Positions 1-54,637 of a stretch of 64,000 nt of DNA are shown here, in pieces. A model generated the notes under the pieces. The model had not been told where the DNA came from. It was given only the letters and a program-made list of their open reading frames with translations, and did not search any database. The stretch's first letter is position 1. Every line of letters begins with the position of its first letter. The position numbers and the translations under genes are program-made. Source of the DNA: Candidatus Zixiibacteriota bacterium (GTDB lineage: Bacteria; Desulfobacterota; Binatia; UBA9968); NCBI GenBank assembly GCA_035574315.1, contig DATLYW010000037.1, positions 43,853 through 107,852 on the forward strand. Direction: 5' to 3'.

Positions 1-159
1 GTTCAGATATTCGCTGACGAAATGGTAGTGCTGCTGGCAGTAAAGAGCGGTCTGCTCGCGGGTGAGCTTGCCCTGCGCCCACAGCTCGAAGAACGGATGG
101 TTCTTGCTGTGCCTGCGGTCGCGCGTCGCGACCAGCTGATCGTGAAAACTAGCCGCCAT
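1..159 (-). CDS. PqqC/TenA/THI-4-like (heme-oxygenase-like fold) protein, N-terminal part only (3' end lies beyond window start)
   Basis: Reverse-complement of 1-159 reads MAASFHDQLVATRDRRHSKNHPFFELWAQGKLTREQTALYCQQHYHFVSEYLN from an ATG at about 157-159, preceded by GGAAGGAG. The HPFF...W..G.LTREQ...Y..Q.Y.FV pattern parallels the second PqqC-like protein at 33475-34227. Confidence 0.5.
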   Translation of the reverse strand, partial: MAASFHDQLVATRDRRHSKNHPFFELWAQGKLTREQTALYCQQHYHFVSEYLN

Positions 160-189
160 GACTCCTTCCCTTCGCTTTTCGTGACCGCG

Positions 190-1929
190 TCATCCCTCGC
201 CCCGTTCGAGCGTTTCCGCGACCGGCTTGAGCCGCATGTCGAGAATGGCAAGCTGCCCGGCGGCGACCGCTCTCAGCCCCCGCTCCACCGCCTTTCGAAC
301 CTCGGCCGGCTCTTCGATCGTCTCTCCATAACCGCCGAAGACGCGCGCCAGCAACGCGTAATCCGGACAGGGCGCGATGTCAAGCCCGGCGAAGCGGTTC
401 GCCCTGACCGCCCACCCCTGCGGGTAATATTTCGGAACCCCGGTTTTCTGGGATAAATAGCCCTGGTTGTTGAACATGATGATGAGGATCGGGAGCTGGT
501 GCTCCTGGGCCGCGCCGAGCGCCCCGGGCACCGGGTCGTAGTTGAACGCCCCGTCGCCGATCAGGCAGACCACGGTCCGTTTGGGGTTTGCCGATTTCAC
601 GCCGAGGGCGGTGGGCAGCCCGGTGCCGAGACCGCCGATGCAGCCTGCGAAAAACGACCCCGGGGCAAGCCCGTCCAGATAGCGGTGTACGGCGAGCCGG
701 TGCGTGATCGTTTCCTCGACGACCATCGCGTCCGGAGGAAGCGCACGGCTGATCTCGTGCGCCACCCAACGCGTGTCCATCGGCTTGGCGGCGCAGAGCG
801 CAGCCGCCTCTTCGCGCCAGCGCCGGCGCCGTGCCTCGTTGCGCTCCTTCCACGCCTCCGCCCGGCGGGCCCGCTCGGGTTCTCCGGGGGAAACGCGTTT
901 CCTCAGGGCCCGGAGCAGCTCCTCGAGCGACCTCTCGATCTCGCCCGTCAGGCAGAGGTCGGCGGCGAACCCGTGATAAGGAAGCTCCGTCCGCAGCGGA
1001 TTCTCGTCGAGCCATGCCACCCGGGCTCCCGGCCGCTCGGGCCGGCGCGACGCCGGATGCCAGGGGGCGATCGTGGCGAGCGCGAGGAACGCGTCCCCTT
1101 CGCGGAGGTATTCGGCGGGCGTATAACCGGCGTGCAGCGCATGCGCACGCGGAAAATTGATGCAGCCCGTGCTGCGGGTCTCGACGACGCCGGCGCCCAG
1201 AAGCTCGGCGATCTCGACCAGGCTTTCGACGGCGTGCGGCGTCCGGCCGGCGTCTTCAGCGATGATGATCGGATTTTCCGCGCGAGCGAGCATCTCGGCC
1301 AGCTCTTCGATCCCTTTCGGATCGGCCACCGGCGCGGGCGCCTCGATCCGATCCGAGGCGACGTCCCGCGTCATCGGCGCGAAAAGGTACTCCATCGGAA
1401 TCGACACGAACACGGGGCCGCGCGGCGCCGCCATGGCGATCCTGCAGGCGCGCTCGATCGTCGCCGGCAGGATCGACCGGGCGTTTACGCCGAAGCTCCA
1501 CTTGACGGTGGGCTCGACCAGGCGCGCCGGACCGCCCACGTCGGCCAGGTGGCCGAGCCATTGACCGCCCACGTCCGGCCCCTCTTCCTCCCCGAAGCCC
1601 ACGGACTCGCCCGTGAAAACGACCATCGGCACCTGTTCGTGCAGCGCGCCGCGCATCGCCATCGTCGCGTGCAGCGCCCCGACCGTGGTGTGGATCATGA
1701 CCGCCGGCAGTTTTCCGGTTGATTTCGCGTATCCGCTGGCCATGCCCACCGCGACCTCCTCGTGCCGCGTGCTGAGATAAAGCGGGATCCGCTCTGCGCC
1801 CGGCTCGGCGAGCGCCTCCCAGACCGGCGACCACTCCGAGCCCGGCGAGGCGAAGATGCGCTCCACGCCCATTCCGCCCAGGACGCGCAACAGCGCCTGT
1901 GCTCCCGTCAGCCCCTTCGTTTCGATCAT
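190..1929 (-). CDS. Thiamine-diphosphate-dependent enzyme (acetolactate synthase / benzoylformate decarboxylase superfamily)
   Basis: 579-aa ORF with an N-terminal TPP-enzyme pyrimidine-binding domain (GxGVERIFAxPG...EQVPMVVFTGE) and a C-terminal ThDP-binding motif (GLGTGLPxAxG...IGDGAFNY...MFNNQGY). Confidence 0.85.
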   Translation of the reverse strand: MIETKGLTGAQALLRVLGGMGVERIFASPGSEWSPVWEALAEPGAERIPLYLSTRHEEVAVGMASGYAKSTGKLPAVMIHTTVGALHATMAMRGALHEQVPMVVFTGESVGFGEEEGPDVGGQWLGHLADVGGPARLVEPTVKWSFGVNARSILPATIERACRIAMAAPRGPVFVSIPMEYLFAPMTRDVASDRIEAPAPVADPKGIEELAEMLARAENPIIIAEDAGRTPHAVESLVEIAELLGAGVVETRSTGCINFPRAHALHAGYTPAEYLREGDAFLALATIAPWHPASRRPERPGARVAWLDENPLRTELPYHGFAADLCLTGEIERSLEELLRALRKRVSPGEPERARRAEAWKERNEARRRRWREEAAALCAAKPMDTRWVAHEISRALPPDAMVVEETITHRLAVHRYLDGLAPGSFFAGCIGGLGTGLPTALGVKSANPKRTVVCLIGDGAFNYDPVPGALGAAQEHQLPILIIMFNNQGYLSQKTGVPKYYPQGWAVRANRFAGLDIAPCPDYALLARVFGGYGETIEEPAEVRKAVERGLRAVAAGQLAILDMRLKPVAETLERGEG

Positions 1930-1991
1930 GCGTTACTCCCTCGCGATCTTCCGGGCGGCCGGGGTTCCCGCCCGCCGGCCCCGACCGCTGC

Positions 1992-3011
1992 TCAGTTCAG
2001 GTTGTAGAAACGCCTGGCGTTGTTCACGAGGATATCCTTCTTCGCGTCCGGGGAAAGATCCTCGCGGCGCCAGACGATCACGGCCGATTCCGGCCAGCTC
2101 ATGTCCCAGTGCGGGTAGTCCGAGGCGTACATGAGCGTCTTCGAACCGATCTCGCGTACGACGTAGCCCATCATCTTTTCCTCGGGCTCGCAGCCGTAAT
2201 AGATGTTTCCGCCCGTGAGGTACTCGCTCGGCTTGCGCTTGCACAACGGCGCTTCGACCTTGCCGCGCTTTTCCCACTCCTCGTCCATGCGCTCCATCCA
2301 GTAAGGAATCCAGCCGCAGCCGATCTCCAGGTAGCCGATTCTCAGGTTCGGAAACTTTTCCGGGATACCGGCGAAAATCATCGCGGTGAGCTGCCGCAGC
2401 ACCGGGAACGGGTGGCCGGTGGTATGGAGGCAGATGAACTGGTCGAAGATCTCGCTTCCCGGCTCGTCGCCCCCGAACGCGTGAATCGCGATGGGCGTGT
2501 TGAGGCGCTGCGCCTCCTCGTACAGAGGATAGAATTCCGGCGAGCCGAGATTCTTGCTGTGCGCCTGCGCCGCCAGCATGCCGCCGCAAAGCCCGAGCTG
2601 AGTGACGGCGCGGTTCAGCTCCCGAGGGCATTCCGCCGGATTGTTGACCGGGAGGTTCGCCACCGCCTTGAGCCGCGGCGACGCCTTGCAGTACTCGGCG
2701 ATGTAGTTGTTGTAGGCCCGGCACAGCGCGGCGTTGAACTTCGGATCGCGGATGCGGCCGATGCCGAGGCCGCTGGTCGGATAGATCACCGCGGTGTCGA
2801 TCTCCTGGCGGTCCATGGCGGCGAGACGTTCCTCCACCTTGGCTCCCGAATGGCCCAGCGTGCCGCCCAGGTTCCGGTCGTAGGTCTCGCGCGGCAGGAA
2901 CGGCGCGGTCTGATTCCGGTAGGGAGCGTCGAGATACGGCCGGATCGCATCGTCGGTATCCCGCGCATGAGCGTCCGAGTCCAGCACTTTGAGAGCATCC
3001 CGTAATTCCAT
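1992..3011 (-). CDS. Amidohydrolase-2 family metal-dependent hydrolase/decarboxylase (ACMSD/LigW-like), paralog 1
   Basis: The track ORF runs 1992-3398, but the likely start is the internal ATG (MELRDALKVLDSDAHA) at 3009-3011, preceded by AAGGAGGAGG. Motifs DxHxH, HxxG and the C-terminal DYPHWD are typical of PF04909. Confidence 0.8.
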   Translation of the reverse strand: MELRDALKVLDSDAHARDTDDAIRPYLDAPYRNQTAPFLPRETYDRNLGGTLGHSGAKVEERLAAMDRQEIDTAVIYPTSGLGIGRIRDPKFNAALCRAYNNYIAEYCKASPRLKAVANLPVNNPAECPRELNRAVTQLGLCGGMLAAQAHSKNLGSPEFYPLYEEAQRLNTPIAIHAFGGDEPGSEIFDQFICLHTTGHPFPVLRQLTAMIFAGIPEKFPNLRIGYLEIGCGWIPYWMERMDEEWEKRGKVEAPLCKRKPSEYLTGGNIYYGCEPEEKMMGYVVREIGSKTLMYASDYPHWDMSWPESAVIVWRREDLSPDAKKDILVNNARRFYNLN

Positions 3012-3046
3012 TTCGTTTCTCCTCCTCCTTAGAGACCGCAGGCCGG

Positions 3047-4213
3047 TCAAGCATGCGCCGCCGCGGTGCCGCCGTTTCCGGACGGGCGCAGGGCGGTTTC
3101 CGGGACCCGCAGGCCGTAGAGGGTCGCTACGTTGCCGCTCAAGAGCCTCACGCGGTCCGCGGCGGGAAGATGGCCGAGGTCGCGGGCGATCACCTCGCGC
3201 GAGCGCGGCCAGGTCGAGTTCTGGTGCGGATAGTCGTTCGACCACATGCAGTTCGCGGTCCCCCACCACGAGAAGAGCCGCCCGCCCACGCGGTCGTTGA
3301 AGAACGTGGCGAAGACCTGGCGCGCGAAGTATTCGCCCGGCTCGCGCGCGATCGGAAGGGTTTCGCGGTGACGGTGGCGCCGATAGGCCTTGTCGCACTG
3401 GCCGAGCCAGAACGGCATCCAGCCGATCTCGTTTTCCACCGACACGACCTTGAGCCTGGGATAGCGCTCGAGCACCCCAGAGAAGATGATGTCGAAGAGC
3501 GCGTCCTCGATCTCGCGGGTCTGGTTGACGCCGATCCGGTAGCGCGCCATTCCGTGGGCGGTCTGCCGGTGCATGCTGTCACCGAATCCCGTCAGGATAT
3601 GGAGGTGCACCGGCATCTCGAGATCCTGCGAGGCGGCCCAGAAGCGCTCGTAGTGCGGCGACGTGAAGGGAAGCTCGGGGTCGGGCGCCTGCCAGATCAT
3701 GCTCCCCACCATGCCGTTCTTCTTGCAGCGCTCCAGCTCCGCGACCGCGTGATCGACATCGTACATGGAGATCAGAGCGATCCCGAAAAGCCGGTCGGGA
3801 GCGCCGGCGCAGAATTCGATCAGCCAGTCGTTGTAGGTCCGGAACAGCGCTTCCTGAAGCGCGGCGTCCTTGATGCAGTAGAGCCCCAGGCCAAGGCTCG
3901 GATAGAGAACTTCCGCCGAAACCCCGTCCTGCTCCATGTCTTTCATTCGCTCGGCCGTATCCCAGCCGCCTGCGCGCGCGACCGCGAAGCCGGCCCGGCG
4001 GAAGTGCTCGATGTTCTCGGCCCTCTGGCCGGCCATGAAAAGACCCCCGACCGCCTGCGCCGGGATCTCGGGAGACCCGAACATCCAGGCGTCCCGCCCC
4101 TCGTCGAAATAGAGCCTGGGCGCGCGGTCGCGGAGCGCCGGCGGCAGCCTTTTTTCCCACAGGTCGGGAACCTCGATCACGTGGGAGTCCGCCGATATGA
4201 TGATCTCCTCCAT
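3047..4213 (-). CDS. Amidohydrolase-2 family protein, paralog 2
   Basis: 388 aa: N-terminal MEEIIISADSHV, HLHIL, and C-terminal WSNDYPH are PF04909-type. The gene is tightly spaced with its neighbours. Confidence 0.8.
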   Translation of the reverse strand: MEEIIISADSHVIEVPDLWEKRLPPALRDRAPRLYFDEGRDAWMFGSPEIPAQAVGGLFMAGQRAENIEHFRRAGFAVARAGGWDTAERMKDMEQDGVSAEVLYPSLGLGLYCIKDAALQEALFRTYNDWLIEFCAGAPDRLFGIALISMYDVDHAVAELERCKKNGMVGSMIWQAPDPELPFTSPHYERFWAASQDLEMPVHLHILTGFGDSMHRQTAHGMARYRIGVNQTREIEDALFDIIFSGVLERYPRLKVVSVENEIGWMPFWLGQCDKAYRRHRHRETLPIAREPGEYFARQVFATFFNDRVGGRLFSWWGTANCMWSNDYPHQNSTWPRSREVIARDLGHLPAADRVRLLSGNVATLYGLRVPETALRPSGNGGTAAAHA

Positions 4214-4223
4214 GGCGCGTCTC

Positions 4224-5213
4224 CTATTTTTTCGCCCACAGCTGATCGAAAAAGCCGCTCTTCTCCATCTCGTTGACGAAGGAGTTGTCGATCATTTCCT
4301 GGGGTCTCACGTTTTTCGCCCGCGCGTCGGTCGCCGTCACCTCGTCGAGGATCGCCTGCAACGCTTCGGGCTTCAGGACCAGCCGGGGCTCGAGCGCCTT
4401 GATCTCGGCGTTGTAGGCCGCGTCGAGGATCGTTCGGTCGGTGAGGCGGAGCTGTTTGCCGAGCACCTTGTAGACGAACTCCCTGTCGGTATGCAGGATC
4501 CTGGCCGACTCGGCCATCGCCCTCATGAAGCGGGCGATCACGTCCCGCTTCCTGGCGATCACCGAGCGCTTCGTGACGAACGCGGTCGCCGCATAGGGGA
4601 TCTTGAGATCGGGGCCGTACACCACGTAACGGTACCCTTCCGCCAGGGCCTTGGCGTCGGAGGGGGCGGTCAGCGTGGCGACCTCGATGCGCTTGCTCAG
4701 AAGCGCCGCCAGGCTCTCCGGGTCGCCGCCGGTCTGGATGAAGCTGAAATCCTTGCCCGGGTCCATGCCGTAGCGCCGCAGCGCCTGAACGGTGAAATAA
4801 TGGGTGTTACTGCCGATCCGGCTCACCCCGATTTGCTTTCCCCGGATGTCCTCGGGGCGCCGGATGTTCCCGCCGGCGAGGATGCTCTGCGTCATGACGT
4901 TTTTCACGCCGCCCACGAACACCAGATCGGTGGCTCCCTGGATGTAGGCGCGGACGTTGCCGATCCCGCCCGTGAGAGTCATTTCGGCGTCACCGCTCAG
5001 GATGGCCGCTGTGACCACGGTCGACGACGCGATGAAAACCAGACGATGATCGATTCCGTACTTGTCGAAGATTCCGGCGGCCTGGGCGATCCACGGCATG
5101 GACTGTGACATCACGCGTGCCGAATGAATGGTGAAGAGCCTGTCTGCCGCGCGCGCGCCCGTCGCCAGCAGGCACCCGAGAAGCAGTCCGCTCAGGATTC
5201 TACGGATTGACAT
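4224..5213 (-). CDS. ABC-transporter substrate-binding protein, NMT1/THI5/SsuA-like, with signal peptide
   Basis: Start reassigned to ATG at 5211-5213 (MSIRRILSGLLLGCLLATGARA), preceded by AGGAGG. It has a secretory signal and an NMT1-type periplasmic binding fold. Confidence 0.7.
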   Translation of the reverse strand: MSIRRILSGLLLGCLLATGARAADRLFTIHSARVMSQSMPWIAQAAGIFDKYGIDHRLVFIASSTVVTAAILSGDAEMTLTGGIGNVRAYIQGATDLVFVGGVKNVMTQSILAGGNIRRPEDIRGKQIGVSRIGSNTHYFTVQALRRYGMDPGKDFSFIQTGGDPESLAALLSKRIEVATLTAPSDAKALAEGYRYVVYGPDLKIPYAATAFVTKRSVIARKRDVIARFMRAMAESARILHTDREFVYKVLGKQLRLTDRTILDAAYNAEIKALEPRLVLKPEALQAILDEVTATDARAKNVRPQEMIDNSFVNEMEKSGFFDQLWAKK

Positions 5214-5583
5214 CGAAGAGGTCCTCCTTAACCTCAAGAGGTCGATATCGCCTCCTATCCAGTGAATTCGTGGCTGCACAGACGCCGTATCATGGCGTCT
5301 GGCGGCCGAGCTATGCCGTTCGCGTCGGTTCAATCGTCGAAATTTCAATCCAGGAACGCGAAACCGGAAAACCGCAAGCCGCCGTCCTCCAGGTCTCGGC
5401 CCATTTCCGCTGGATGTCTGCCTGCCATGAAGCTCCCTGGCACGTCGCGTTCCGTCGAGCCCCCTTCTTCTACTCCTTTACGGAAGCGATTGTCAAAACG
5501 GACGGCGATGGGCTCCCGTAGCTCGCCGGGACCGGAAGCGGGGAACCATGGACTACGGCATCTCCGTCGTGCCTGGGGATCGC

Positions 5584-6612
5584 CTATCTCCAGAAGCGCT
5601 CTCTCCAGCGCGGCACGGCGTCCGGGTTGACGACGGTCTCGGGCACGCGGCCCTCGAGAACCGCGAGAATGCTCTGTGCGGCCATGCGCTGGCCCGCTTC
5701 GAGGGAGCCGGGATTGTTGCCGATGATATGCGGCGTCAGGATCAGGCGGGCCGGGTCGACGCGGCGCAGGGGATTGTCCGGCGGCAACGGCTCTTCCTCG
5801 AAGACGTCGAGGGCGGCTCCGGCGATCAGCCCATCGTTCAAGGCGCGGCAGAGATCCTGCTCGTGAAAGACCTGTCCGCGCGAGGTATTCACGATATAGG
5901 CGCTCGGCTTCATCATGCGGAGCTGCTCCATCCGGAGCATCCCGCGGGTCTCCCGGGTCAATACCACGTGCACCGTGACCACGTCCGATTCCCGCAACAG
6001 CTCCTCCAGCCCCACCTTGCGCACGCCCACCGACGCCATCGTTTCATGGGAGACATAGGGATCGTAGCCGATCAGCTTCATCTCCCAGCCGCCGAGCCGT
6101 CTGGCGACGGCTTTGCCGATGCGACCGAGCCCGATGATTCCGGCCGTCTTTCCGAGCATCAAAGCGCCGCGGTTCTCGGGCTCCTTCCATCCCCCGCCGC
6201 GCAGCCACGCCTCGTTGAGCTTCAACCGCTTGAAGAGCGCCGCGATCAGGCCGACCGTAGCCTCCGCCACTCCGAGGTAATTCTCCGGGGTCGGGCTGTT
6301 GCAGCACAGAATCCCCAGCTCGGTGGCGGCTTCGACGTCGACGGTCTCGATGCCGATGCTCGACTTCACCACCGCCTGGACGCGGGGGCAGGCGGCCAGG
6401 ACGTCTCGGCCGATGAAGTCGCGTCCCGCGGGATAGATCGCGTCGCTGTCGCCAACGAGCGCGATCAGCTCGCGCGTGTCGTAGCGAAAGGAGCGAAAGT
6501 CGTCGGCGGACTTGCCCAGCACCAGCTCGCAACCGGCTGCACGCAGGAGATCCTCAGCCAGCTTCAGGCGGGCTGGCCCCGTTACGCAGACCTTGCGACC
6601 CCGAACGCTCAA
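5584..6612 (-). CDS. D-isomer-specific 2-hydroxyacid dehydrogenase (PGDH/GyaR-like), NAD-binding
   Basis: The GxGxxG Rossmann motif (GIIGLGRIG) and the catalytic region are typical of the family. The likely start is TTG at 6610-6612, overlapping the upstream TGA as TTGA. The track ATG at 6666 would overlap the upstream gene by 57 nt. Confidence 0.75.
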   Translation of the reverse strand: MSVRGRKVCVTGPARLKLAEDLLRAAGCELVLGKSADDFRSFRYDTRELIALVGDSDAIYPAGRDFIGRDVLAACPRVQAVVKSSIGIETVDVEAATELGILCCNSPTPENYLGVAEATVGLIAALFKRLKLNEAWLRGGGWKEPENRGALMLGKTAGIIGLGRIGKAVARRLGGWEMKLIGYDPYVSHETMASVGVRKVGLEELLRESDVVTVHVVLTRETRGMLRMEQLRMMKPSAYIVNTSRGQVFHEQDLCRALNDGLIAGAALDVFEEEPLPPDNPLRRVDPARLILTPHIIGNNPGSLEAGQRMAAQSILAVLEGRVPETVVNPDAVPRWRERFWR

Positions 6613-7643
6613 GCCGCCGCTCCCTCGAGATTGTAGAGCCGTTTCGCGGCCCCGGCGAAGAGCCAACGTTTGGCTTCGTCGTCCAGATCCTCGCGCCGGG
6701 CCAGATGTTGGATGTTCTCGGGAAACTCGGAATCCCAGTGCGGGTAGTCAGACGCATAATAGACCGTCCGGTGGCCGAGGAGACCGGCTGCCGCCCCGAC
6801 GAGCGGCTCGTAGTCCTCGGCATGGAAAAAGATCCGCCCCTCCTTGAAGTACTCGCTCGGCTTGCGGCGGCAGTTCGGCGCCTCCACCCTGCCCCGTTTC
6901 TCCCACTCCTCGTTCATCCGGCCCATCCAGTAGGGGGCCCAGCTGCAACCTGCCTCCATGAAGGCCACCCGCAGCTTTGGGAAACGGTCGAAGACGCCGC
7001 GGAACATGAAGCTCGTGAGCTGCATCATCTGCGCGAAGGAATGCGACAGCGTGTGCACTTCGATGAACTGATCGAACAGGTCGCCGGCGAAGTAATGAGG
7101 GCCGCGAACGGTGGCGTGGATTCCCACCATGCAGTCGAGCCGCTCCGCTTCCTCGTAGATCGGCCAGTAGCTCTCGTGACCGAGGGGGAGGCGCAACCCG
7201 ACCGCGGGCAGCATGACGCCGACGAGCTTGAGCTCCCGGATCGCGCGGCCGAGCTCCTTGACGGCCTCGGGCACGTCCTGGAAGGGAACCAGTGCGACCG
7301 CCTTCAGGCGGGGGCTCACCTTCTGGAACTCTTCCGAGACGAAGTCGTTCCAGGCTCTGGCGTACGCGACCGCGACATCGGGCTCGCGGATCCAGCCGAT
7401 GCTGAGCCCGTTGGTCGGGTAGAGCACCGCCGTCGAAACGCCGCCCCGGTCCATGGCCTCGAGCCAGCTCTTTGCGTCGCGCGCCCGGGTGCCGAGCGTA
7501 CCGGATAGCGAACGGTCCCAGCTGTCCCGCGGCGTGAGCGTGGCCGCGCGCTTGCGGTAACGCTCCTCCATGTAGGGCTTGAGCTGGCTGTCCTCTTCGG
7601 TGATGTGTCCATCGGCGTCGATCACCTCGTAGCGTTCCGCCAT
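6609..7643 (-). CDS. Amidohydrolase-2 family protein, paralog 3
   Basis: Start at ATG 7641-7643 (MAERYEVIDADGHI), preceded by GGAGGA. HATV, EAGCSWAPYW and ASDYPHWD are conserved PF04909 features. Confidence 0.8.
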   Translation of the reverse strand: MAERYEVIDADGHITEEDSQLKPYMEERYRKRAATLTPRDSWDRSLSGTLGTRARDAKSWLEAMDRGGVSTAVLYPTNGLSIGWIREPDVAVAYARAWNDFVSEEFQKVSPRLKAVALVPFQDVPEAVKELGRAIRELKLVGVMLPAVGLRLPLGHESYWPIYEEAERLDCMVGIHATVRGPHYFAGDLFDQFIEVHTLSHSFAQMMQLTSFMFRGVFDRFPKLRVAFMEAGCSWAPYWMGRMNEEWEKRGRVEAPNCRRKPSEYFKEGRIFFHAEDYEPLVGAAAGLLGHRTVYYASDYPHWDSEFPENIQHLARREDLDDEAKRWLFAGAAKRLYNLEGAAA

Positions 7644-7952
7644 GGCGCGCTCCTCCCCGGCGCTTTTTTCTGTGTTTCGTCTACTCTTCAAGGGACCGCG
7701 CTGTCAAGCCGCGCCGCAGGACGTGGCTTGACGGTTGCGGATCCGGGCGGTAGTCTGCGGCCGTCGCCGAACAATAGACGGTATCCTGTTCCCGGCGCTC
7801 TGTCTCGAACCGCGAACCGCCGCGTGGCGGCACGGCACCAACGGTTTGAGCGCCTGAACGATTTGAAGCCTCGATGGCGATCGCGGTTCGAGCGAGCCCG
7901 GCCACGATGCTCATGTACTGGCGAGCTCATTCAGTACCCGGACGGCTCTCGG

Positions 7953-8171
7953 ATGGCTAATCTCTATTACAACGACCGCCTCATCATCGCCCACGCCTCC
8001 CTGCATCCGAGCAGCAAGCTCTGGAGCGCGGGCGCCGAGATCACGTGGAAGGTCTCCGGCTCGCGGCGCTCGCACACCATCGGCGGGCTTGGCGAGCGCT
8101 TCCGGACGGCCGAAGAGGCCGAGAAGTTCGCGATCGATCTGGCCAAGGCGTGGATCGACGCCAATCCGTAG
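7953..8171 (+). CDS. Hypothetical small protein (72 aa)
   Basis: ATG at 7953, MANLYYNDRLIIAHASLHP...AKAWIDANP. It sits alone in a roughly 650-nt gap with low coding density. No recognisable domain. The RBS is weak. Confidence 0.35.
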   Translation: MANLYYNDRLIIAHASLHPSSKLWSAGAEITWKVSGSRRSHTIGGLGERFRTAEEAEKFAIDLAKAWIDANP

Positions 8172-8299
8172 GTCGAGCACGGCGGGAACACGCCGCAGCG
8201 AAACGCGACGGTCGATCCGGCGCTCCCTCCAGGGCGGCACGGCCGGCCTGATGCGTCGGCCCCGCCGCGAAGCGCCCGTGTTTTTTCTCCCGGTCGGCG

Positions 8300-8491
8300 T
8301 CAGTCGGCGGAACAGGAGAAGGGGCTCCCGACGCAACTGACGATCTTACTCCAGTTATCCGCGAGCCTCGCTCCCACGTCCGTGTTCTTGACCCCGAGCC
8401 AAACGACCAGTGTGACGAAAAAAACGATCAAGGTGTATTCGACCAGCCCCTGTCCTTTTTCCGTTTTTCGCACGTCCCGCGCGGGCGCCAT
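8300..8491 (-). CDS. flp: Flp family type IVb pilin
   Basis: 63 aa with GQGLVEYTLIVFFVTLVV, the Flp/Fap motif (G-x-x-x-x-E-Y) followed by a hydrophobic helix. Confidence 0.75.
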   Translation of the reverse strand: MAPARDVRKTEKGQGLVEYTLIVFFVTLVVWLGVKNTDVGARLADNWSKIVSCVGSPFSCSAD

Positions 8492-8787
8492 CGCTCACCG
8501 TCTCCTTCTGCGAAGTTGTTGTCTACACGCCGAAGACCGTCACGGCACGGACCGTGCCGATTCCGATCCGAGGAATGCCCAAGGAGTTCGCTCGTCCATC
8601 GACGTCGACCGAAAGAGGTCCGAGACGTGGACAGTAACGATTTCCTGTTTTCTGTTTTTTGTTGACCTCCCGTCCTTTGAACTATCGAACCGTCCCCTAG
8701 CGGCGCGAATCTCCGCGGCATCGGTCGCTCCGTCTTCGGAGCCGCCGCACTGCCCGCATGACGGATATCGCGCCCTCGCGAACCACC

Positions 8788-9819
8788 CTACTTCGGTACC
8801 AGCACTTCCTTCAGGCGCGCGACCTGCCTGGAGTCGAGGTTGAAAAGGCCCTTGACGATCCTTTCCATCTCGTCGCCCGTGACCGGGTCCACCTCGAGCT
8901 TGGCTTTACGCGCTTCCGCGAGGAACTCGGGATCCTTGTACGTTTCAAGGAAGGCGCGCCTCAACGTTTCCACCCGCTCTCTGGGGGTCCCGGGGGGCAA
9001 AAAGTAGGGGCGCGTAACCGTCGCGATGTCGTGCACCGCGTATTTGAGAAGGTCCTTGGCGTCCTGGGTTTTGGCGTAGTCGATCGCCAGGGGCACGTGA
9101 GGCAACTCCGGGTGTTTTTTCGGCATCGCCTGGATCACCACCGCCACCTCTTTCGAGTCCAGCCCTTTACGCCAGGTGGACTTGATCGACTCCCACGCCC
9201 AGCAGCCGCCCGCGAGCTCCCCGCTTTCCGCGGCCAGCCGGATGTCCGACGTGCCCTTGTAACCGTCGACCACCTGGATCGGCAGCTTCAACGCCGCCTT
9301 GAGGGTTCGGGCGACGTCCGAAGCGGTACCGCCCGGACCGACGCCCCCGAGCTTCACCGGCTCCCTGGCGGCGAACCACGCATCGACGGTGGTGACGCCG
9401 GAGGTCCTGCTGAGGGCGCATACGGGATGATCGACCGCAGGGGCGCCGAGATACTCGAAACGGCGGCCGTCGAATTCGATACCCTTGGCTCCCATGATCT
9501 GCTGCAGGATCAGCCCGCCGATGTTGTTGCCGATCGTCAGGCCGTCCGGCCTGGCGCTCTGGTACATGAAGTTCGCCTGGATGATGCCGCCCGCTCCCGT
9601 CATGTTCTCTACGACCACGGAGGGGCGCCCGGGAATGTGCTTACCGAGATGGCGGCCGATCGCCCTGCTGTAGGTGTCGAAGCCTCCGCCGGGGCTGAAC
9701 GCGACGATCAACCGGATGCTCTTCCCCCGGTAGAACGCTTCTTGTGCCGGTGCCGGCACGGCCGCAAGCGCTGCACAGCAGCCAGCGGCGGCCAGGAGGC
9801 GCCGCAAATGTACTTTCAT
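8788..9819 (-). CDS. tctC: Tripartite tricarboxylate transporter substrate-binding protein (TctC/Bug family)
   Basis: 343 aa with a signal peptide and motifs IVxFxPGGGxD, ENxxGAGG and VDGYKG, characteristic of PF03401. Confidence 0.85.
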   Translation of the reverse strand: MKVHLRRLLAAAGCCAALAAVPAPAQEAFYRGKSIRLIVAFSPGGGFDTYSRAIGRHLGKHIPGRPSVVVENMTGAGGIIQANFMYQSARPDGLTIGNNIGGLILQQIMGAKGIEFDGRRFEYLGAPAVDHPVCALSRTSGVTTVDAWFAAREPVKLGGVGPGGTASDVARTLKAALKLPIQVVDGYKGTSDIRLAAESGELAGGCWAWESIKSTWRKGLDSKEVAVVIQAMPKKHPELPHVPLAIDYAKTQDAKDLLKYAVHDIATVTRPYFLPPGTPRERVETLRRAFLETYKDPEFLAEARKAKLEVDPVTGDEMERIVKGLFNLDSRQVARLKEVLVPK

Positions 9820-15522: not shown

Positions 15523-16275
15523 TCAAGGATGGGTGTCGCCGCCGGAGCCGCGGTCCGGCGCAAGGCGATCTTCGAGACCCAGGCGCCGGCCGACGAAGGC
15601 GGCCGCCGGAGGCAGGACGACCGCGAGCAGCCCGAGAAGAACCCACGGTCCGGGATCCCCGGAGGCAAAAGCGGCTTCGAGCTGGACGCTGGCAAAGGTA
15701 AGCGCGAGCCAGCCCGGAATGCGACCCAGCAGGCTGGCGCCGAAAAAGTCGGCGAAGCGTATCCCGGCGGCGCCGACGAAAAGGTTCACCAGGGTAAAGG
15801 GCGCGACAGGCAGCAGCCGGAGCACGAGGACCGTGAGAAAGCCGCGGCGTGCCGCGTGGCGGATGACGGACTTCAACCGCGGAGCGGTAAAGCCCTCCAG
15901 CACTTCCCGGCCCGCGAGCCGCCCGATGGTAAAGGCGACTGCGGCGCTGACGAGCCACCCGGCCAGCGCGTAGAGATTTCCCGCGATCGGCCCGAAGGTC
16001 ATGACGGTCGCGAGGGTCAGAGCCGTCGCCGGAACGAACGCGAGGCTGGCGAGGACGTAGGCGCCGACGACCACGTACGCGGCCGCCGGATCATTTCGGA
16101 TCGACTCCTGCCACGCGGCGATTGCCGCGGGATCGATCCAGGCGGCGAGCGGGGTCCAGCGCCAAAGCAGGAAGAGCAAAAGGAAAAGGAGCGCCGCGCC
16201 CGCACGCTTGCAGCGGCCAGCGAAGGCAGGTTCCGGCGTAATCGGAGCCGGCCGTGAAAGCGATTGATCGCGCAT
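15523..16275 (-). CDS. DedA/TVP38/TMEM64 (SNARE-associated) family membrane protein
   Basis: A multi-TM protein with the DedA-type re-entrant motif region (GxxxVxxxRLLPxxP). The exact start is uncertain. Confidence 0.65.
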   Translation of the reverse strand: MRDQSLSRPAPITPEPAFAGRCKRAGAALLFLLLFLLWRWTPLAAWIDPAAIAAWQESIRNDPAAAYVVVGAYVLASLAFVPATALTLATVMTFGPIAGNLYALAGWLVSAAVAFTIGRLAGREVLEGFTAPRLKSVIRHAARRGFLTVLVLRLLPVAPFTLVNLFVGAAGIRFADFFGASLLGRIPGWLALTFASVQLEAAFASGDPGPWVLLGLLAVVLPPAAAFVGRRLGLEDRLAPDRGSGGDTHP

Positions 16276-16555
16276 GTGGTTTCAGGTTAAAGGGTCGGCC
16301 CTGTTGGCGCAAGCCTTCCACGGGAGCCGCTGTGCGGTTTCCACTTCTTCGCGTCGATCCCGGATTCAGGTTGCCGTCGACGCGGGCACCCTGGCCGCAC
16401 CGCCTCCCCTGCGCAGCGGAGGCGACGATCGGGCCACTTCGATTAAACGCCGGTGCTCGATTGAACGGCGAAGCGGCGATAGGTCGACGAACGTTGCAAT
16501 AATTGACTGCGGGCAACCCCCGTGTTACGAAGCAAAAACTTCGCGAGGAAGACAC

Positions 16556-18043
16556 GTGGGGCTGAAATTCGAGGAGTTGAGATCGCTGGATCTGCGCCGA
16601 TGCGCCAGCGCAGGAGATATCGTCGCCGCGATGCGCCACTGCGCCTTCGGAGCGCGCATGCTGGGAGAGATGGCGACGACTCTGCACCAGTTGATCCTCG
16701 ACCGCGAGCGGCCTCTGGTGATCTACGACGGCCTGCCGGATTCCCCCCTGGGCCGTCTTCTCGCGCGCTTCGTCGAGCGCGGCTGGTGCCGCAAGATCCT
16801 CCGGCCCGAACAGTACGCCCGGCGCGCAAGCGGCAAGGAGACGGTGCTGGTGGTCGGCGGATTCTCTGAACGGCACGCCGACGCGGTCTACCGCAAGCCC
16901 TCGCGCGCGCTGTTCATCAATCAGTTCGATCTCGCCCGCCCCGGCCAGATCCGGGACGGCTACTTTCCCGACGCGGTCTTCGCCGATCCGCGGCTGGTGC
17001 TTCCGGTGATCGACTGCGCGCTTACGGAATGGCTGGACGGGCGGCGCTGGTCGGCGGGTCGGCTGCTCGCGAGCCTCGGCGCCTACGGCGGCGTCGCTTC
17101 GCAGGTCGCTCGGGCGGCAACCGCGCTGCAGCGGATGGTGCAGGATCGCGACTGTCTCCGCTTCCTGACCGTCAGCGGAGCGATGACGGTCGGCAAGATG
17201 GACCTGGTGATCTGCGACATGATCGAGCACGGTTTCATCGACGCGATCACCTCCACGGGCGCGCTCATGGCTCACGGCCTGGTGTCGTCGATCGGGCTCA
17301 AGCACTACAAGTACGATCCGTCCTACGACGACACGACGCTGGCGCGCCACCGCCTGAATCGCGTGACCGACACCCTGGAACCGGAAACCAACCTCGACAG
17401 CGTCGAAGAGGTGATCGGCAAGGTGATCGAGCCGATCGACGGATCACGCCCGATCAGCCCCGCGATCCTGAACCGGCACATCGGGCGATACCTCGCGCGC
17501 CGGTTTCCGCGGGAGCGCGGCATCCTGAAGTCCGCCTACCAGCACGGCGTTCCGGTCTTCGTTCCCGCCTTCGTCGACTCGGAGCTGGGAAACGATCTCT
17601 ACATCCACAACCTCAAGCGCCGCCGGCGCGGCCGCAAGCCGATCCTGATCGACCACGAGATCGACAGCAGGGAGCTGATTCGCCTGGTGACCGGGGCGAA
17701 GCGATTCGGCATCTTCACGATCGGCGGCGGCGTGCCGCGCAACAACGTCCAGAACGTCGCCCCCTTGATCGAGATCATCAACGAGCGGCTGGGAGCGATC
17801 TATCCGGAGCGCCGCTTCCACTACGGCATTCGCATCTGCCCCGACCGGCCGCACTTCGGCCATCTGTCAGGGTGCACCTATTCGGAAAACGAGTCCTGGC
17901 GCAAGGCGGCGCCCGACGGCGTCTACGCGGAGGTGCAGGCGGACGCGACGCAGGTGTGGCCGTTTCTCGTGAAATTTCTGATGGACAACACCGCGGGCTC
18001 CGGCCGGACCGCCCGCGACGGCGAAAGGAGGAAGAAACCGTGA
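16556..18043 (+). CDS. Deoxyhypusine synthase-like protein
   Basis: The DHS core motif VSGAMTVGKMDLVICDMIEHGFIDAITSTGALMAHGL...KHYKYD matches the archaeal/eukaryotic DHS GAMVPAGMR...IDVxVTTGANLTHDL...KHYKG. The likely start is GTG at 16556, preceded by GAGGAAG. It carries a roughly 120-aa C-terminal extension. Confidence 0.7.
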   Translation: MGLKFEELRSLDLRRCASAGDIVAAMRHCAFGARMLGEMATTLHQLILDRERPLVIYDGLPDSPLGRLLARFVERGWCRKILRPEQYARRASGKETVLVVGGFSERHADAVYRKPSRALFINQFDLARPGQIRDGYFPDAVFADPRLVLPVIDCALTEWLDGRRWSAGRLLASLGAYGGVASQVARAATALQRMVQDRDCLRFLTVSGAMTVGKMDLVICDMIEHGFIDAITSTGALMAHGLVSSIGLKHYKYDPSYDDTTLARHRLNRVTDTLEPETNLDSVEEVIGKVIEPIDGSRPISPAILNRHIGRYLARRFPRERGILKSAYQHGVPVFVPAFVDSELGNDLYIHNLKRRRRGRKPILIDHEIDSRELIRLVTGAKRFGIFTIGGGVPRNNVQNVAPLIEIINERLGAIYPERRFHYGIRICPDRPHFGHLSGCTYSENESWRKAAPDGVYAEVQADATQVWPFLVKFLMDNTAGSGRTARDGERRKKP

Positions 18044-19042: not shown

Positions 19043-20761
19043 TCAGCGCGCGGGCTCGACGTCGAGCGCCGACCGTTCGGTGCCGACCGCGATCCGGTCG
19101 TGCACCTTGCGGATGCCGGATACCCCATGGGCGGCGCTCACGGCTGCGGCCCTCTGACTGTCGGATGCGACCCGGCCGCTCAGGTAAGCCGTGCTCCCGG
19201 TAACCGACACCTCGACACCGCGGACGGCCCGGGCATGGATCGCCTTGAGGATCTCGAATTCCAGCCGCTCGTCTCCGCGCTCGAGGTCGACTCGCGGGGC
19301 GGATTCGACGGCAACCCGGTCGATAACCGACGTGACAGCCGGCACCGCGCGCACCGCCCGCAGCGCCGCCTGCTTCTGGCGTTCGGTCGCCACGCGCCCC
19401 TCGAGACGGGCGATGCCGTCCTTGACGGAGACCCTGACCCCTTCGATCGCCCGGTTCGCGATCGCGCGCCGCGCCAGGTCCTCCGCGGAAGCCGAGCCAT
19501 CGTTTTTATCGTCCGCCGGGAAAGGCCGGGCTGGGGCCCCACGTTCCGCAGTTGAATCCTTCGGCGCCGCGACGGCTGCAGAATCGGACAGCGACTCCGT
19601 CGGGATCTCGCGTTGGGCGGGAACAGGGGCCTGGTGTTCCGCTTCCCGAAGCGTGCTCGCGCCGGGCGGAACAGAGAGCGGCGCGTCGCGGTCGACTCTC
19701 GCCTGCGCCAGGCGCCGGCTGAGATCGGAGAGCGCGGAGTCGAAGCTCGGATAGAGCATGGCGCCTGCGACCGCGGTCGCGACCGCCGCAGCCGTCCCGC
19801 TCCAGAGCGCCGCACGGTCTCCCCGCCGCCGCCGGCCGGCGACCGTCGCCTCGAATTCCGGGAACTCCCTCCTTCCCTCCCCCGCCTCCACGGAGAGAAG
19901 AGAGGTTGGCGACGGCTGCGTGTCGGCCGGAGCGGCTTTTTTCGCACCGGGAAGCAGGCGAAGATCGACGGCTGCCTCCTCCACCATCGCCCGGCTCACT
20001 CGCTGCCGCGTTGTGGCGTACCCGGTGACCAGTGCCTGATCGCAAAGCAGGTTGATCAGCCGCGGCACCCCGCGGCTGTATTTCCACACCGCGCGGACCG
20101 CCCCCCGATCGAAAAGCGCTTCTCGCCCGCACCCGGCCCGCCTGAGGCGCATGCCGATGTAGCTGTCGACTTCCGCTTCTCCCAGGGATTTCAACCGCAA
20201 CCACAACGCCACCCGCTGCCGCAACTGCCGCATGTCCGCTCCCGCCAACCGCTCCTCCAGCTCCGGCTGTCCCGCCAGCACCATCTGCAAGAGCTTTTCC
20301 TTTTCTGTCTCGAGATTGCTCAGCAGGCAGAGCCCCTCCAACGCCTCCTCGCTCAGCTCCTGCGCCTCGTCGATCAAAAGCGCCACCCGCCGACCCCTGC
20401 GCGCCCGGGACGCCAAATATTCCCGCAAACAGCCCCATGCCGCCCTCCACCCTTCGCCCATGTTCCCCAACCCAAGCTCCCCTCCTATCTCGCGCAACAA
20501 CTCGTGGAATCCGACCTGGCCGCTCACCCCGCTCACGCAGGCCACATCGACGTCCTCTGCCAGCGCTCCCATCAGCCGCCGCAACAGCATCGTCTTGCCC
20601 GTCCCGACCTCCCCCACGAGCACCACGATCCCCTTGCCTTGCTCCACTCCGTAGCGCAACCCCGCAAACGCCTCCCGATAGATCTCGTTCTCGTAATAAA
20701 ACCCAGGGTCCGGCGTCACGCTGAACGGCCGCTCGCGAAAACCGAAGTACTCCAGATACAT
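19043..20761 (-). CDS. ExeA/GspA-like AAA ATPase (AAA_16) with a central TM/linker and two C-terminal BON (OsmY-like) domains
   Basis: The N-terminus MYLEYFGFRERPFSVTPDPGFYYENEIYREAFAGLRYGVEQGKGIVVLVGEVGTGKTMLL matches ExeA. It is followed by a Pro/Ala-rich linker with a hydrophobic segment. Two repeats (VSVKDGIARLEGRVATERQKQAALRAVRAVPAVTSVIDRVAV and VEVSVTGSTAYLSGRVASDSQRAAAVSAAHGVSGIRKVHDRIAV) fit the BON domain. Confidence 0.75.
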   Translation of the reverse strand: MYLEYFGFRERPFSVTPDPGFYYENEIYREAFAGLRYGVEQGKGIVVLVGEVGTGKTMLLRRLMGALAEDVDVACVSGVSGQVGFHELLREIGGELGLGNMGEGWRAAWGCLREYLASRARRGRRVALLIDEAQELSEEALEGLCLLSNLETEKEKLLQMVLAGQPELEERLAGADMRQLRQRVALWLRLKSLGEAEVDSYIGMRLRRAGCGREALFDRGAVRAVWKYSRGVPRLINLLCDQALVTGYATTRQRVSRAMVEEAAVDLRLLPGAKKAAPADTQPSPTSLLSVEAGEGRREFPEFEATVAGRRRRGDRAALWSGTAAAVATAVAGAMLYPSFDSALSDLSRRLAQARVDRDAPLSVPPGASTLREAEHQAPVPAQREIPTESLSDSAAVAAPKDSTAERGAPARPFPADDKNDGSASAEDLARRAIANRAIEGVRVSVKDGIARLEGRVATERQKQAALRAVRAVPAVTSVIDRVAVESAPRVDLERGDERLEFEILKAIHARAVRGVEVSVTGSTAYLSGRVASDSQRAAAVSAAHGVSGIRKVHDRIAVGTERSALDVEPAR

Positions 20762-20770
20762 CCCGGCCTC

Positions 20771-22999: not shown

Positions 23000-23212
23000 C
23001 GAGATCGGCCTGGGTTTCCTTCGCTCCCCGGAGTGCGGTTCGCCGTGGCGCTGGCCGTCGCTCGTGAGCGACCATGGCTCGATGCCGGTCCGGCGCGAAT
23101 CCCCGTGACAGCGGAGCCAGCGTTCGGCCGCACGGCCGTCACGCCACACTCCGAGATTGTCCGACCGGTTGCGGCTGTCCGAACTGCCCATGAACCCCTG
23201 CTTCTCCTTGAA

Positions 23213-24784: not shown

Positions 24785-25353
24785 AAAAGATAAGTCCTTT
24801 TTGCGTACGGGCAAGCCCCATGCCATCGGCGGGAGGCCGGGTAAGCTACCGAAACATGGTTCTTGTGTTGCGGCGGGCGGCGCTACGGCACCCTCGATGC
24901 AGGGGTTGCCCTACAGGCACGGAGGGAAAATCCGCGAAATCGGGAGCGGTCGCGCTGACTCGGTCCTGACGGAACAACAACCGGGACAGGCGGAACGTGT
25001 GACGCAATCCGGTTACGGCCGCGGCGATCCTCGCGGAGTCCGTCGAGATTTCTCCACTGCCGAAAGAACCGAGCTTCGGAGCCGGAGCGCGGCAAAGGGA
25101 GAGGAGGTCTTCCGCCCGCCGCTCGAGTCGTTGCGGGAATGGCCAGGGGAGGCGCGGAAGCGATCCCGAAGCCGGCGCGCTCGACTTCCCACCGCGCTGC
25201 GAGAAGTGCGGCTTTTGAGGCGCTGCGCACGATTTCGCGCAAAGGAACAGCGCCGTGCGGCACGGCGCCTCTCGATCCGCCTGGACAAGCGGCCGGAAAT
25301 CCTCTACAGAATGAAGGCGCACCTGAGGGCACAGGAGGGGCACGCTCGTCGCG

Positions 25354-30457: not shown

Positions 30458-30775
30458 GTGGCGTGGGCTTATCTCGTGATCGCCGGCATCCTGGAGGTCT
30501 GCTGGGCGATCGGCCTCAAATACAGCGACGGCTTCGCGCGGCCGTGGCCGTCCGTCGCGACCGTGGCGGCGATGGCCGCAAGCTTTTATTTTCTGGCGCT
30601 GGCCGTGAAGGCGATTCCGGTGGGGACCGCCTACGCCGTCTGGACGGGGATCGGCGCCGCGGGCACCGCAATGCTGGGCATGCTGCTCTTCTCCGAGTCG
30701 GCGGCGCCCGGGCGCTGGTTGTCCATCGCGCTGATCGTCGCGGGAATCGTCGGCCTGCGGCTGAGCTCCGAGTAG
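30458..30775 (+). CDS. sugE: SMR-family small multidrug efflux protein (SugE/EmrE-like)
   Basis: GTG start ([23 protein letters not shown], compared with SugE MAWIYLLIAGLLEV...), 105 aa, four TM helices and a conserved Glu. Confidence 0.8.
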
Positions 30776-31356: not shown

Positions 31357-31460
31357 GGTCCCGCGATGATAGCAGATCGCTCCCGGGAATTCACCCGCTC
31401 CCGCCGCTTGACAAGAGCCGGCCCGCTCCATATGGTTCGTGGCCGAAGGACAGGCCCGCC

Positions 31461-32378: not shown

Positions 32379-32389
32379 GCGGCGTTCTC

Positions 32390-33436: not shown

Positions 33437-33474
33437 ACTCCCCTCCGGAGCCCGGGCCCCGCGGCGGCCGGTCG

Positions 33475-34227: not shown

Positions 34228-34358
34228 AACTCCTCCTCCGGCCCAGGAATCCGTGGTATCCGGCGCCCTCAGCCTAGCGCTGAACCGCCGCCGCAATCAA
34301 CAGGCCCCGGGCGCCGCGCGCGGTTGTCTTTGGTCCCGTCGTTGACTAACATAGAGCC

Positions 34359-35911: not shown

Positions 35912-35926
35912 GACGGCGGCCGGCCG

Positions 35927-36916: not shown

Positions 36917-36932
36917 GGCGCCGCTCCCGACG

Positions 36933-37577: not shown

Positions 37578-37587
37578 GCAAAAACTC

Positions 37588-45608: not shown

Positions 45609-45617
45609 GCGGCCCCC

Positions 45618-53544: not shown

Positions 53545-54633
<1,089 letters not shown>

Positions 54634-54637
54634 GGCG

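Follow-up and report, generated by a model that had tools for sequence, protein, structure and literature searches.

Here, we describe module 1, a minus-strand operon at the left end (positions 1 to 7643) of a 64,000-nucleotide (nt) stretch of contig DATLYW010000037.1 (assembly GCA_035574315.1, labeled Candidatus Zixiibacteriota), referred to below as the window. In the window, module 1 encodes three proteins of the amidohydrolase-2 family PF04909 (ARO_A, ARO_B, and ARO_C), a thiamine diphosphate (ThDP) enzyme, a TenA-type protein (HDO1), a D-2-hydroxyacid dehydrogenase, and a substrate-binding protein (SBP). Our main finding is that ARO_A and ARO_C show all the sequence hallmarks of the amidohydrolase-related dinuclear (Fe/Fe or Mn/Fe) oxygenases (AROs) and that all three PF04909 proteins are predicted to be of the ARO type and not of the decarboxylase type. 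On the same kind of evidence, ARO_B is a relative of the PtmU3 clade that misses the last acidic residue of the ARO site, and HDO1 is a predicted CADD-like heme oxygenase (HO)-like dimetal oxidase. With a probability of about 0.5, we suggest that uncultured Binatia-type bacteria use module 1 to catabolize or salvage a small imported compound in an O2-dependent manner. An earlier prediction, made by a model from the letters of the window (the original prediction), had also proposed a catabolic role, and the breakdown of an imported compound remains the best reading; the hydroxylated aromatic or heterocyclic acid that it named as the substrate is neither supported nor excluded.

Every superfamily in module 1 is already known, as are ARO-containing catabolic operons (aib and dit). 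What is new is the combination, confined to an uncultured phylum, of two AROs with complete motifs, a third with a conserved Asn at the last motif position, a CADD-like oxidase lacking the sacrificial tyrosine, and a benzoylformate decarboxylase (BFDC)-like enzyme. About 17,000 ARO sequences have been predicted (PMC13154177). The ARO superfamily was not defined until 2024-2026, substrates are known for only a handful of its members, and most are still annotated "amidohydrolase", as in the original prediction. Being small and accessible to experiment, the operon is well suited to a search for new C-H oxidation chemistry and to finding out which compounds Binatia break down.

Enzymes of module 1

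All PF04909 members have one fold, and the fold alone would not separate an oxygenase from a decarboxylase. We ranked the relatedness of the module-1 proteins by searching the sequences of solved structures (PDB). ARO_B matched PtmU3 at 1.3e-52 and DitZ at 1.5e-31, but ACMSD only at 1e-15. ARO_A and ARO_C matched 8SM7, 8SM9, AibH2 (6M1W_B), SfbO (8SM6), and PtmU3 at 1e-31 to 1e-22, while the values for ACMSD, LigW, and gamma-resorcylate decarboxylase were 1e-19 to 1e-12 (LigW, 2.7e-19 for ARO_A). Thus, for all three proteins, the E-values of the oxygenases are 6 to 37 orders of magnitude better than those of the decarboxylases.

AROs are O2-activating Fe/Fe or Mn/Fe enzymes within PF04909 (PMC10811679, PMC13154177). 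Two motifs mark them out: N-terminal D-x-H on the first beta strand, which supplies two ligands of metal site 1, and C-terminal D-x-P-H-x-[D/E], which holds site-2 ligands and is preceded by ~200 or more residues. Neither motif occurs in a characterized PF04909 hydrolase or decarboxylase (PMC13154177). The N-terminal motif is present in all three module-1 proteins (LDSDAH in ARO_A, SADSH in ARO_B, and IDADGH in ARO_C), is kept in their orthologs, and aligns with D-V-H of 8SM7 and D-S-H of PtmU3. The C-terminal motif, at about residue 295-330 in each protein, reads DYPHWD in ARO_A and ARO_C, which are 45% identical to each other, and DYPHQN in ARO_B. In the related loci described below, DYPHWD is found in 53/53 ARO_A orthologs and D[YFW]PHWD in 21/21 ARO_C orthologs. 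An extra conserved His (..AIH..) and Glu (..LE.G..W.P) align with residues of 8SM7, AibH2, SfbO, and PtmU3. The ranking against solved structures, the motifs absent from characterized hydrolases and decarboxylases (complete in ARO_A and ARO_C), and the aligned His and Glu support the prediction that these proteins are of the ARO type.

Like the AROs AibH2, SfbO, PtmU3, DitZ, and B6JH23 (8SM7) of Afipia carboxidovorans, the module-1 proteins combine the PF04909 TIM barrel with D-x-H and the mid-barrel His and Glu, to which ARO_A and ARO_C add the C-terminal D-x-P-H-x-D; as in aib and dit, their genes lie within a catabolic-looking operon. They differ from these AROs in being only 25-35% identical to any characterized member and in that three ARO-type genes share one operon without a Rieske ferredoxin or reductase gene. 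We also read the metal-preference residues (gamma1, gamma2, and gamma4) by alignment against Table 1 of PMC13154177, an inference of our own, and by these residues ARO_B (Ser, Tyr, and Gln) looks like a diiron-type protein.

In ARO_B, Asn replaces the Asp or Glu found at the last motif position of AROs (DYPHQN in 31/32 orthologs). According to Hibi et al. (PMC7782822), conservation of this acidic residue is restricted to binuclear members, and AibH1, which binds a single zinc and is the non-catalytic partner of AibH2, lacks it. However, AibH2 D342A still binds all its metals, although its activity is diminished (PMC10401708, Powell et al.); because this variant retains both metals, the loss of the acid is no proof of a mononuclear site. 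We suggest that ARO_B may serve as an auxiliary subunit, in the way that AibH1 does for AibH2, or may be an oxygenase of weakened or variant type. Wherever ARO_B is present in the related loci, it adjoins ARO_A, and the two proteins of the window share 26.5% identity. Similarly, the heterotetrameric hydroxylase AibH1H2 of Rhodococcus wratislaviensis is encoded by two adjacent PF04909 genes, the mutual identity being ~26-28% in both pairs (AibH1/AibH2, 28%), and one partner (AibH1, here ARO_B) lacks the last acidic residue, while the other (AibH2, here ARO_A) has the full site (PMC7782822). In contrast to AibH1H2, ARO_B is far nearer to PtmU3 (1e-52) than to AibH1 (6e-10), and ARO_A occurs without ARO_B in a short operon variant; a complex of ARO_A and ARO_B is putative here. 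Of the 127 full-length representatives of 50% clusters that are nearest to ARO_B, 48 have D at the last motif position, 29 have E, 13 have N, 11 have A, 5 each have S, G, and V, and 3 have Q. While 77/127 end in D or E, about one-third of these relatives are without an acidic last residue, and D-x-P-H-x-[D/E] as published therefore excludes part of the PtmU3-like clade, including a conserved subclade that ends in Asn.

HDO1, which is truncated by the left edge of the window, is complete on contig L001, which has the identical sequence, and comprises 234 residues (TenA/Haem_oxygenas_2). Its best PDB matches are 9pj4 (2e-24) and CT610/CADD (1rcw; 1.5e-18), both self-sacrificing 4-aminobenzoate (pABA) synthases. 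Based on alignment to 1rcw, 8va9, and 9pj4, HDO1 keeps all six dimetal ligands (E..H / E / H-x3-D-x2-H), and LGDEEN..RH, GLESQ, and H-x3-D-x2-H are found in 39-40 of 40 orthologs. In CT610, we take these ligands to be Glu81, His88, Glu142, His174, Asp178, and His181, as numbered from the 1rcw alignment. However, Tyr27 of CADD is replaced by Phe and the neighboring Lys152 by Leu; NHPFF is found in 26/40 ortholog open reading frames, whereas the search for this pattern gave no match in the remaining 14. The Y27F mutant of CADD yields no pABA (PMC9522330). Because Tyr27 is replaced, HDO1 is predicted to be unable to make pABA from its own tyrosine and presumably acts on another, free substrate. 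Altogether, HDO1 shares with CADD/CT610 the seven-helix HO-like family and the six ligands, while HDO1 and its orthologs have Phe/Leu for Tyr27/Lys152 and the HDO1 operon has oxygenases and a decarboxylase. HDO1 scores 97 bits against the NCBIfam CADD model (TIGR04305; cut-off 200). PqqC, the comparison made in the original prediction, was rejected (TIGR02111, 39 bits; cut-off 240), and there are no pqq genes near HDO1; rather, the protein is CADD-like and has the full dimetal ligand set.

The best PDB match of the ThDP enzyme is BFDC (5e-34). Aligned to Pseudomonas putida BFDC, it retains the equivalents of the catalytic residues Ser26, His70, and His281 and of the cofactor-activating Glu47, and its motifs PGSEW, RHEE, IHTTVG, and PWHP are invariant in 85 homologs. 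The nearest NCBIfam model is NF006203, "ThDP-requiring protein" (416 bits; cut-off 456); the BFDC equivalog NF005485 gave 215 bits (cut-off 493). Sulfoacetaldehyde acetyltransferase (Xsc) was rejected as an identity (TIGR03457, 133 bits; cut-off 676). A search of a plasmid collection with the ThDP protein returned two distant matches only and was uninformative. The dehydrogenase is generic, with matches to phosphoglycerate dehydrogenase (235 bits) and glyoxylate reductase (213 bits) that are both below the NCBIfam cut-offs. The SBP has a lipoprotein-type signal peptide (LLLGC). Finally, AH1, a protein encoded downstream of HDO1, falls just short of the "chlorohydrolase family" model (408; cut-off 416) and shares its H-x-H with the deaminase group.

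Operon organization and conservation

We used tblastn to locate every operon protein in a set of 80 loci drawn from GTDB species representatives. The module-1 gene order recurs in dozens of independent contigs of metagenome-assembled genomes (MAGs); therefore, the clustering is not due to chance. The ThDP protein has hundreds of relatives with 70-80% identity, and the named ones are almost all from Candidatus Binatia. There were 55 loci, almost all from Binatia MAGs, with a ThDP protein at least 64% identical and with enough flanking sequence; in 46 of these (46/55), the gene immediately upstream of the ThDP gene is ARO_A, compared with 0/17 loci with ThDP homologs of 57-60% identity. One locus with a ThDP homolog of 58-60% identity has sulfotransferase and glycosyltransferase neighbors, which give no substrate information. 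HDO1 was found in 24/32 loci whose downstream sequence covers 9 kb, and 13/25 widely flanked loci have the full window-like gene set. The original prediction had proposed neighborhood conservation as a check and had held that a lack of conserved co-occurrence of PF04909 genes with ThDP or PqqC-like genes would speak against it; we found this co-occurrence to be strongly conserved, as these counts (46/55 and 13/25) attest.

The loci have two architectures. Variant I, the one in the window, has the order ARO_C, dehydrogenase, SBP (one to four tandem copies), ARO_B, ARO_A, ThDP enzyme, HDO1, and AH1. The shorter variant II comprises a dehydrogenase of the ornithine cyclodeaminase (OCD)/mu-crystallin family, SBP, ARO_A, and ThDP enzyme and, farther on, SBP, HDO1, and a flavin reductase. 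Invariant in both is a core of SBP, ARO_A, ThDP enzyme, and HDO1. Upstream of this core, the D-2-hydroxyacid dehydrogenase of variant I and the OCD-family dehydrogenase of variant II alternate, which fits a 2-oxo acid as the ThDP substrate. The flavin reductase beside HDO1 in variant II and two Rieske ferredoxin genes located divergently next to the operon on one contig only (L004 = L026) fit with redox enzymes that need electron donors.

Approximately 10/21 variant-I loci have a Fer4/NrfD/molybdopterin oxidoreductase set after AH1 (L003, 14533-18933; L004, 14231-18607; and ~8 others). As a candidate sulfite dehydrogenase, this molybdenum (Mo) oxidoreductase was rejected, since it matched no specific curated family.

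Some related loci are labeled Verrucomicrobiia, Udaeobacter, Chloroflexota, or Alphaproteobacteria, yet their proteins are 70-80% identical to those of Binatia. Binatia-like loci under other taxon labels, including the Zixibacteria label of the source contig, likely reflect mis-binning or mislabeling of MAG contigs. The module-1 cluster is not described in the literature that we searched, and the Binatota genome paper makes no mention of amidohydrolase, benzoylformate, thiamine, sulfonate, mandelate, or taurine.

Genes in the window (~66% G+C over the whole 64 kb) were called via third-position G+C and then checked by Pfam (Table 1). Module 1 consists of seven closely packed genes, all on the minus strand. 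The start of ARO_A was reassigned to the ATG at 3011 and that of the dehydrogenase to a TTG that overlaps the ARO_C stop codon as TTGA; gene calls on a public Logan contig with identical sequence agree (344, 342, 329, and 388 residues). Look-ups for identical proteins gave no match for ARO_A with either start or for the PF04909 protein of module 2 (AH2_D); the source assembly is interrupted within ARO_A. From the left edge, the intergenic spacers are 30, 62, 35, 10, and 370 nt, plus the TTGA overlap, and a Shine-Dalgarno-like GGAG precedes every start. The short spacers, the overlap, and the Shine-Dalgarno sequences support a single operon. Consistently, the co-directional minus-strand operon running from 7643 to 1 and the families named in the original prediction were confirmed by Pfam and public gene calls. 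The spacers of 4-35 nt or overlaps with one gap of 370 nt that it listed nearly match ours, except for one spacer of 62 nt. Its genes were correct, but the operon does not end at base 1; rather, on L001 it continues with the remainder of HDO1 and then AH1.

Table 1. Features of modules 1 and 2 (positions in the window)
Feature	Position	Strand	Remarks
Module 1			
AH1, 481 aa, Amidohydro_1/3	downstream of HDO1, outside the window		chlorohydrolase/deaminase-like; seen on L001
HDO1 N-terminus (first 53 codons)	1-159	-	Pfam TENA_THI-4; truncated by the left edge of the window
ThDP enzyme, 579 aa	190-1929	-	Pfam TPP_enzyme_N/M/C
ARO_A, 339 aa, PF04909	1992-3011	-	Pfam E 2e-33; LDSDAH ... DYPHWD
ARO_B, 388 aa, PF04909, PtmU3-like	3047-4213	-	Pfam E 6.5e-23; D-S-H and DYPHQN
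SBP, 329 aa, NMT1/THI5 (SsuA/TauA/PhnD-type)	4224-5213	-	Pfam NMT1, NMT1_2, Phosphonate-bd
Spacer, 370 nt, between dehydrogenase and SBP genes	5214-5583		
D-isomer-specific 2-hydroxyacid dehydrogenase, 342 aa	5584-6612	-	Pfam 2-Hacid_dh, 2-Hacid_dh_C
ARO_C, 344 aa, PF04909	6609-7643	-	first gene of the operon; Pfam E 1.7e-30; IDADGH ... DYPHWD
Module 2			
AH2_D, 305 aa, PF04909	31461-32378	+	ACMSD/LigW type
GntG-family pyridoxal phosphate (threonine-type) aldolase	32390-33445	-	449 bits (cut-off 230)
HDO2, TenA/Haem_oxygenas_2	33475-34296	-	second HO-like protein
ABC ATPase and metallo-beta-lactamase-fold hydrolase	within 34359-38355	+	not listed in the original prediction
Cytoplasmic SBP-fold protein	35927-36916	-	weak NMT1/Phosphonate-bd match; without signal peptide
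2-Keto-3-deoxy-6-phosphogluconate (KDPG)/2-keto-4-hydroxyglutarate (KHG) aldolase	36933-37577	-	
Short-chain dehydrogenase/reductase	37588-38355	-	cluster runs on into hydantoinase B/A genes

The 370-nt spacer is the position at which additional SBP paralogs occur in related loci, and it may contain an internal promoter. A promoter and terminator scan around the operon, including this spacer, found no consensus promoter or terminator, and no conservation at the DNA level of the 370-nt and 1.1-kb spacers was found in related loci. The 1.1 kb upstream of the operon (7644-8787) contains only two tiny called genes (72 and 63 residues) and gave no Pfam or Rfam match. No regulator gene adjoins the operon.

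A candidate catabolic route and its alternatives

In the route that we propose, the periplasmic NMT1-type binding lipoprotein would capture a small compound, and one or more of the AROs would hydroxylate unactivated C-H bonds of the imported compound. The D-2-hydroxyacid dehydrogenase, or the OCD/mu-crystallin-family dehydrogenase in the short variant, would then generate a 2-oxo acid, which the BFDC-like ThDP enzyme would convert to an aldehyde in a segment resembling the mandelate pathway. HDO1 could contribute a further oxidation, which would be either a C-C or C-N cleavage or an N-oxygenation, and AH1 could remove an amino or amidino group. Reductant would be supplied from elsewhere, since the operon in the window has no ferredoxin or reductase gene. 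As in the mandelate segment (D-mandelate dehydrogenase and BFDC), one operon encodes a D-2-hydroxyacid dehydrogenase and a ThDP enzyme with Ser26, His70, and His281. However, the module-1 ThDP enzyme has ~50 extra residues and scores less than half of the BFDC equivalog cut-off, and module 1 is without mandelate racemase and benzaldehyde dehydrogenase.

Several observations weigh against this route. The order of the reactions is purely inferred. All matches of the module-1 enzymes to curated NCBIfam models are below cut-off, and there is no characterized ortholog. The BFDC-type residues of the ThDP enzyme are found in carboligating relatives, too. The operon has no ABC permease or ATPase gene, and neither a Rieske ferredoxin (PF00355) nor a reductase gene is present in the 64-kb window; a neighboring Rieske ferredoxin is typical of low-potential AROs but does not define AROs. 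ARO_B fails the strict ARO motif. ARO_A (Ala, Tyr, and Trp) and ARO_C (Gly, Tyr, and Trp) have mixed metal-preference residues that fit neither published metal class, the aromatic gamma4 being Mn-type and the gamma1 Ala/Gly and gamma2 Tyr being Fe-type. Moreover, all loci come from one phylum of MAGs, and part of the synteny could be due to shared ancestry rather than selection.

We also speculate, tentatively and while regarding it as rather unlikely in this full form, that up to three ARO-type enzymes and one CADD-derived dimetal enzyme act in series with the BFDC-like decarboxylase on a recalcitrant small molecule. Here, ARO_B and ARO_A would form a heteromeric hydroxylase of a PtmU3-clade and an AibH2-like protein, in which the auxiliary subunit is without the last acid, and HDO1 would have been repurposed from self-sacrifice to the turnover of a free substrate. 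If true, this would imply new ARO and HDO chemistries and a ferredoxin-independent electron supply.

Among the alternatives to an O2-dependent route for a small imported compound, catabolism of an organosulfonate or organophosphonate is improbable, though several matches point in this direction. The SBP would import the anionic substrate, the dehydrogenase and the ThDP enzyme would convert a sulfo- or phosphonolactate-type intermediate by way of the 2-oxo acid to an aldehyde, the dimetal oxygenases would perform C-S or C-P chemistry, and the Mo-oxidoreductase would dispose of sulfite. The SBP matches SsuA_fam, a taurine SBP, and Phosphonate-bd, the top curated match of the dehydrogenase is phosphoglycerate dehydrogenase, and roughly half of the variant-I loci have the Fer4/NrfD/molybdopterin complex after AH1. 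Moreover, the ARO SfbO acts on aminoethylsulfonates, and 2-aminoethylphosphonate perturbs its cofactor (PMC10811679). However, the SBP matches are all far below cut-off (SsuA_fam, 65 bits), and its weak similarity to TauA among solved structures gives no clue to the ligand. The ThDP enzyme is not Xsc, ARO_A and ARO_C have Thr and His in place of the sulfonate-binding Arg232 and Arg235 of SfbO, and the Mo enzyme, besides having no specific family match, is absent from half of the loci.

A biosynthetic function, with the AROs and the HO-like oxidase as tailoring enzymes for a secondary metabolite or cofactor in the manner of PtmU3, DolJ, BesC, and SznF, is also quite improbable. PtmU3, the closest solved relative of ARO_B, is biosynthetic, and ~1,600 of the ~17,000 putative AROs are in predicted biosynthetic gene clusters (PMC13154177); as far as the available part of PMC13108848 goes, characterized HO-like dimetal enzymes are mostly biosynthetic. 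Nevertheless, no gene for a polyketide synthase, nonribosomal peptide synthetase, terpene synthase, ligase, or exporter lies in or beside the operon; rather, the operon includes genes for one to four exported binding lipoproteins, and its pairing of a dehydrogenase with a decarboxylase is typical of degradation.

The original prediction had read the PF04909 paralogs as non-oxidative decarboxylases or hydrolases (of the ACMSD, LigW, gamma-resorcylate, or iso-orotate decarboxylase type) and had assigned to them, the ThDP enzyme, and the PqqC-like protein the breakdown of a hydroxylated aromatic or heterocyclic acid. This is in line with PF04909 membership, with the decarboxylases among the weaker PDB matches, and with the resemblance of the ThDP enzyme to an aromatic 2-oxo-acid decarboxylase. 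We consider it very unlikely, however, because D-x-H and D-x-P-H replace the H-x-H-type site in all three proteins and oxygenases rank best, while the sole decarboxylase-type protein is AH2_D of module 2, which is unlinked to the module-1 operon. Lastly, salvage of the pyrimidine moiety of thiamine (hydroxymethylpyrimidine) by a ThiY-like SBP, a TenA-like protein, and the ThDP enzyme, as the Pfam names NMT1/THI5 and TENA/THI-4 in one operon could suggest, was rejected as hardly credible, since the window, including 7500-8900, has no thiamine pyrophosphate riboswitch, no other RNA element lies near the operon, no thi genes neighbor it, HDO1 has the full dimetal ligand set and is nearest to CADD and not to thiaminase II, and the three oxygenase-type genes would have no role in salvage.

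Module 2 and other features of the window

Modules 1 and 2 have superfamilies in common but not a pathway. AH2_D matched ACMSD at 3e-34 and LigW at 1e-28, and its sole ARO match was DitZ (9e-5). It has an N-terminal H-A-H (VIDCHAH) and no D-x-P-H and is, in this respect, a classical PF04909 decarboxylase-type protein. AH2_D is 24-26% identical to the PF04909 proteins of module 1, and HDO2 is 27% identical to HDO1; HDO2 scores 106 bits against PqqC (TIGR02111; cut-off 240). The genes of module 2 lie on both strands in at least four transcription units. The whole arrangement (30631-42280) is conserved in ~30 long metagenome loci anchored on HDO2, none of which has an ortholog of ARO_A, ARO_B, or ARO_C or the ThDP gene of module 1; conversely, no module-2 protein is encoded next to module 1 in the mapped module-1 loci. 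The families that the original prediction listed for a second module are present according to Pfam, except that its "PhtD-like decarboxylase" corresponds to the weak NMT1/Phosphonate-bd match (Table 1), which belongs to no curated family. Its view of modules 1 and 2 as paralogous does not hold, given that AH2_D is of the ACMSD/LigW type, that identities are 24-27%, and that AH2_D is never found with an ARO or the module-1 ThDP gene.

Elsewhere in the window, an S-adenosylmethionine (SAM) riboswitch (RF00162; 60517-60627, plus strand; 90 bits; gathering score, 44) immediately precedes genes for a ThiF-family adenylyltransferase and a PALP (cysteine-synthase-like) protein (60655-61455 and 61822-62823). 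This unit may represent SAM-controlled Cys/Met biosynthesis of the sulfur-carrier type. On the minus strand at 53545-60289, tandem MmgE/PrpD-family paralogs (457 and 482 residues) are located downstream of a complete ABC importer that consists of an SBP, a fused permease, and an ATPase with a TOBE domain. The region at 42373-48797 is catabolic-looking and encodes an F420/LLM-class luciferase-like oxidoreductase, an M20 peptidase, and an arylmalonate-decarboxylase/EutA-like protein, as well as two NMT1-type binding proteins that flank a 332-residue protein without a family match. The source genome is strikingly rich in NMT1-type SBPs that have no permease next to them. A 589-residue protein of the deoxyhypusine synthase family (16274-18043, plus strand) has its DS domain at residues 264-567, preceded by an N-terminal extension of ~260 residues without a family match. 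Finally, at 19043-24826 on the minus strand, MdoG and an MdoH-like family-2 glycosyltransferase of 806 residues, a pair of the osmoregulated periplasmic glucan type, precede an AAA/STAND-like ATPase that contains two BON domains.

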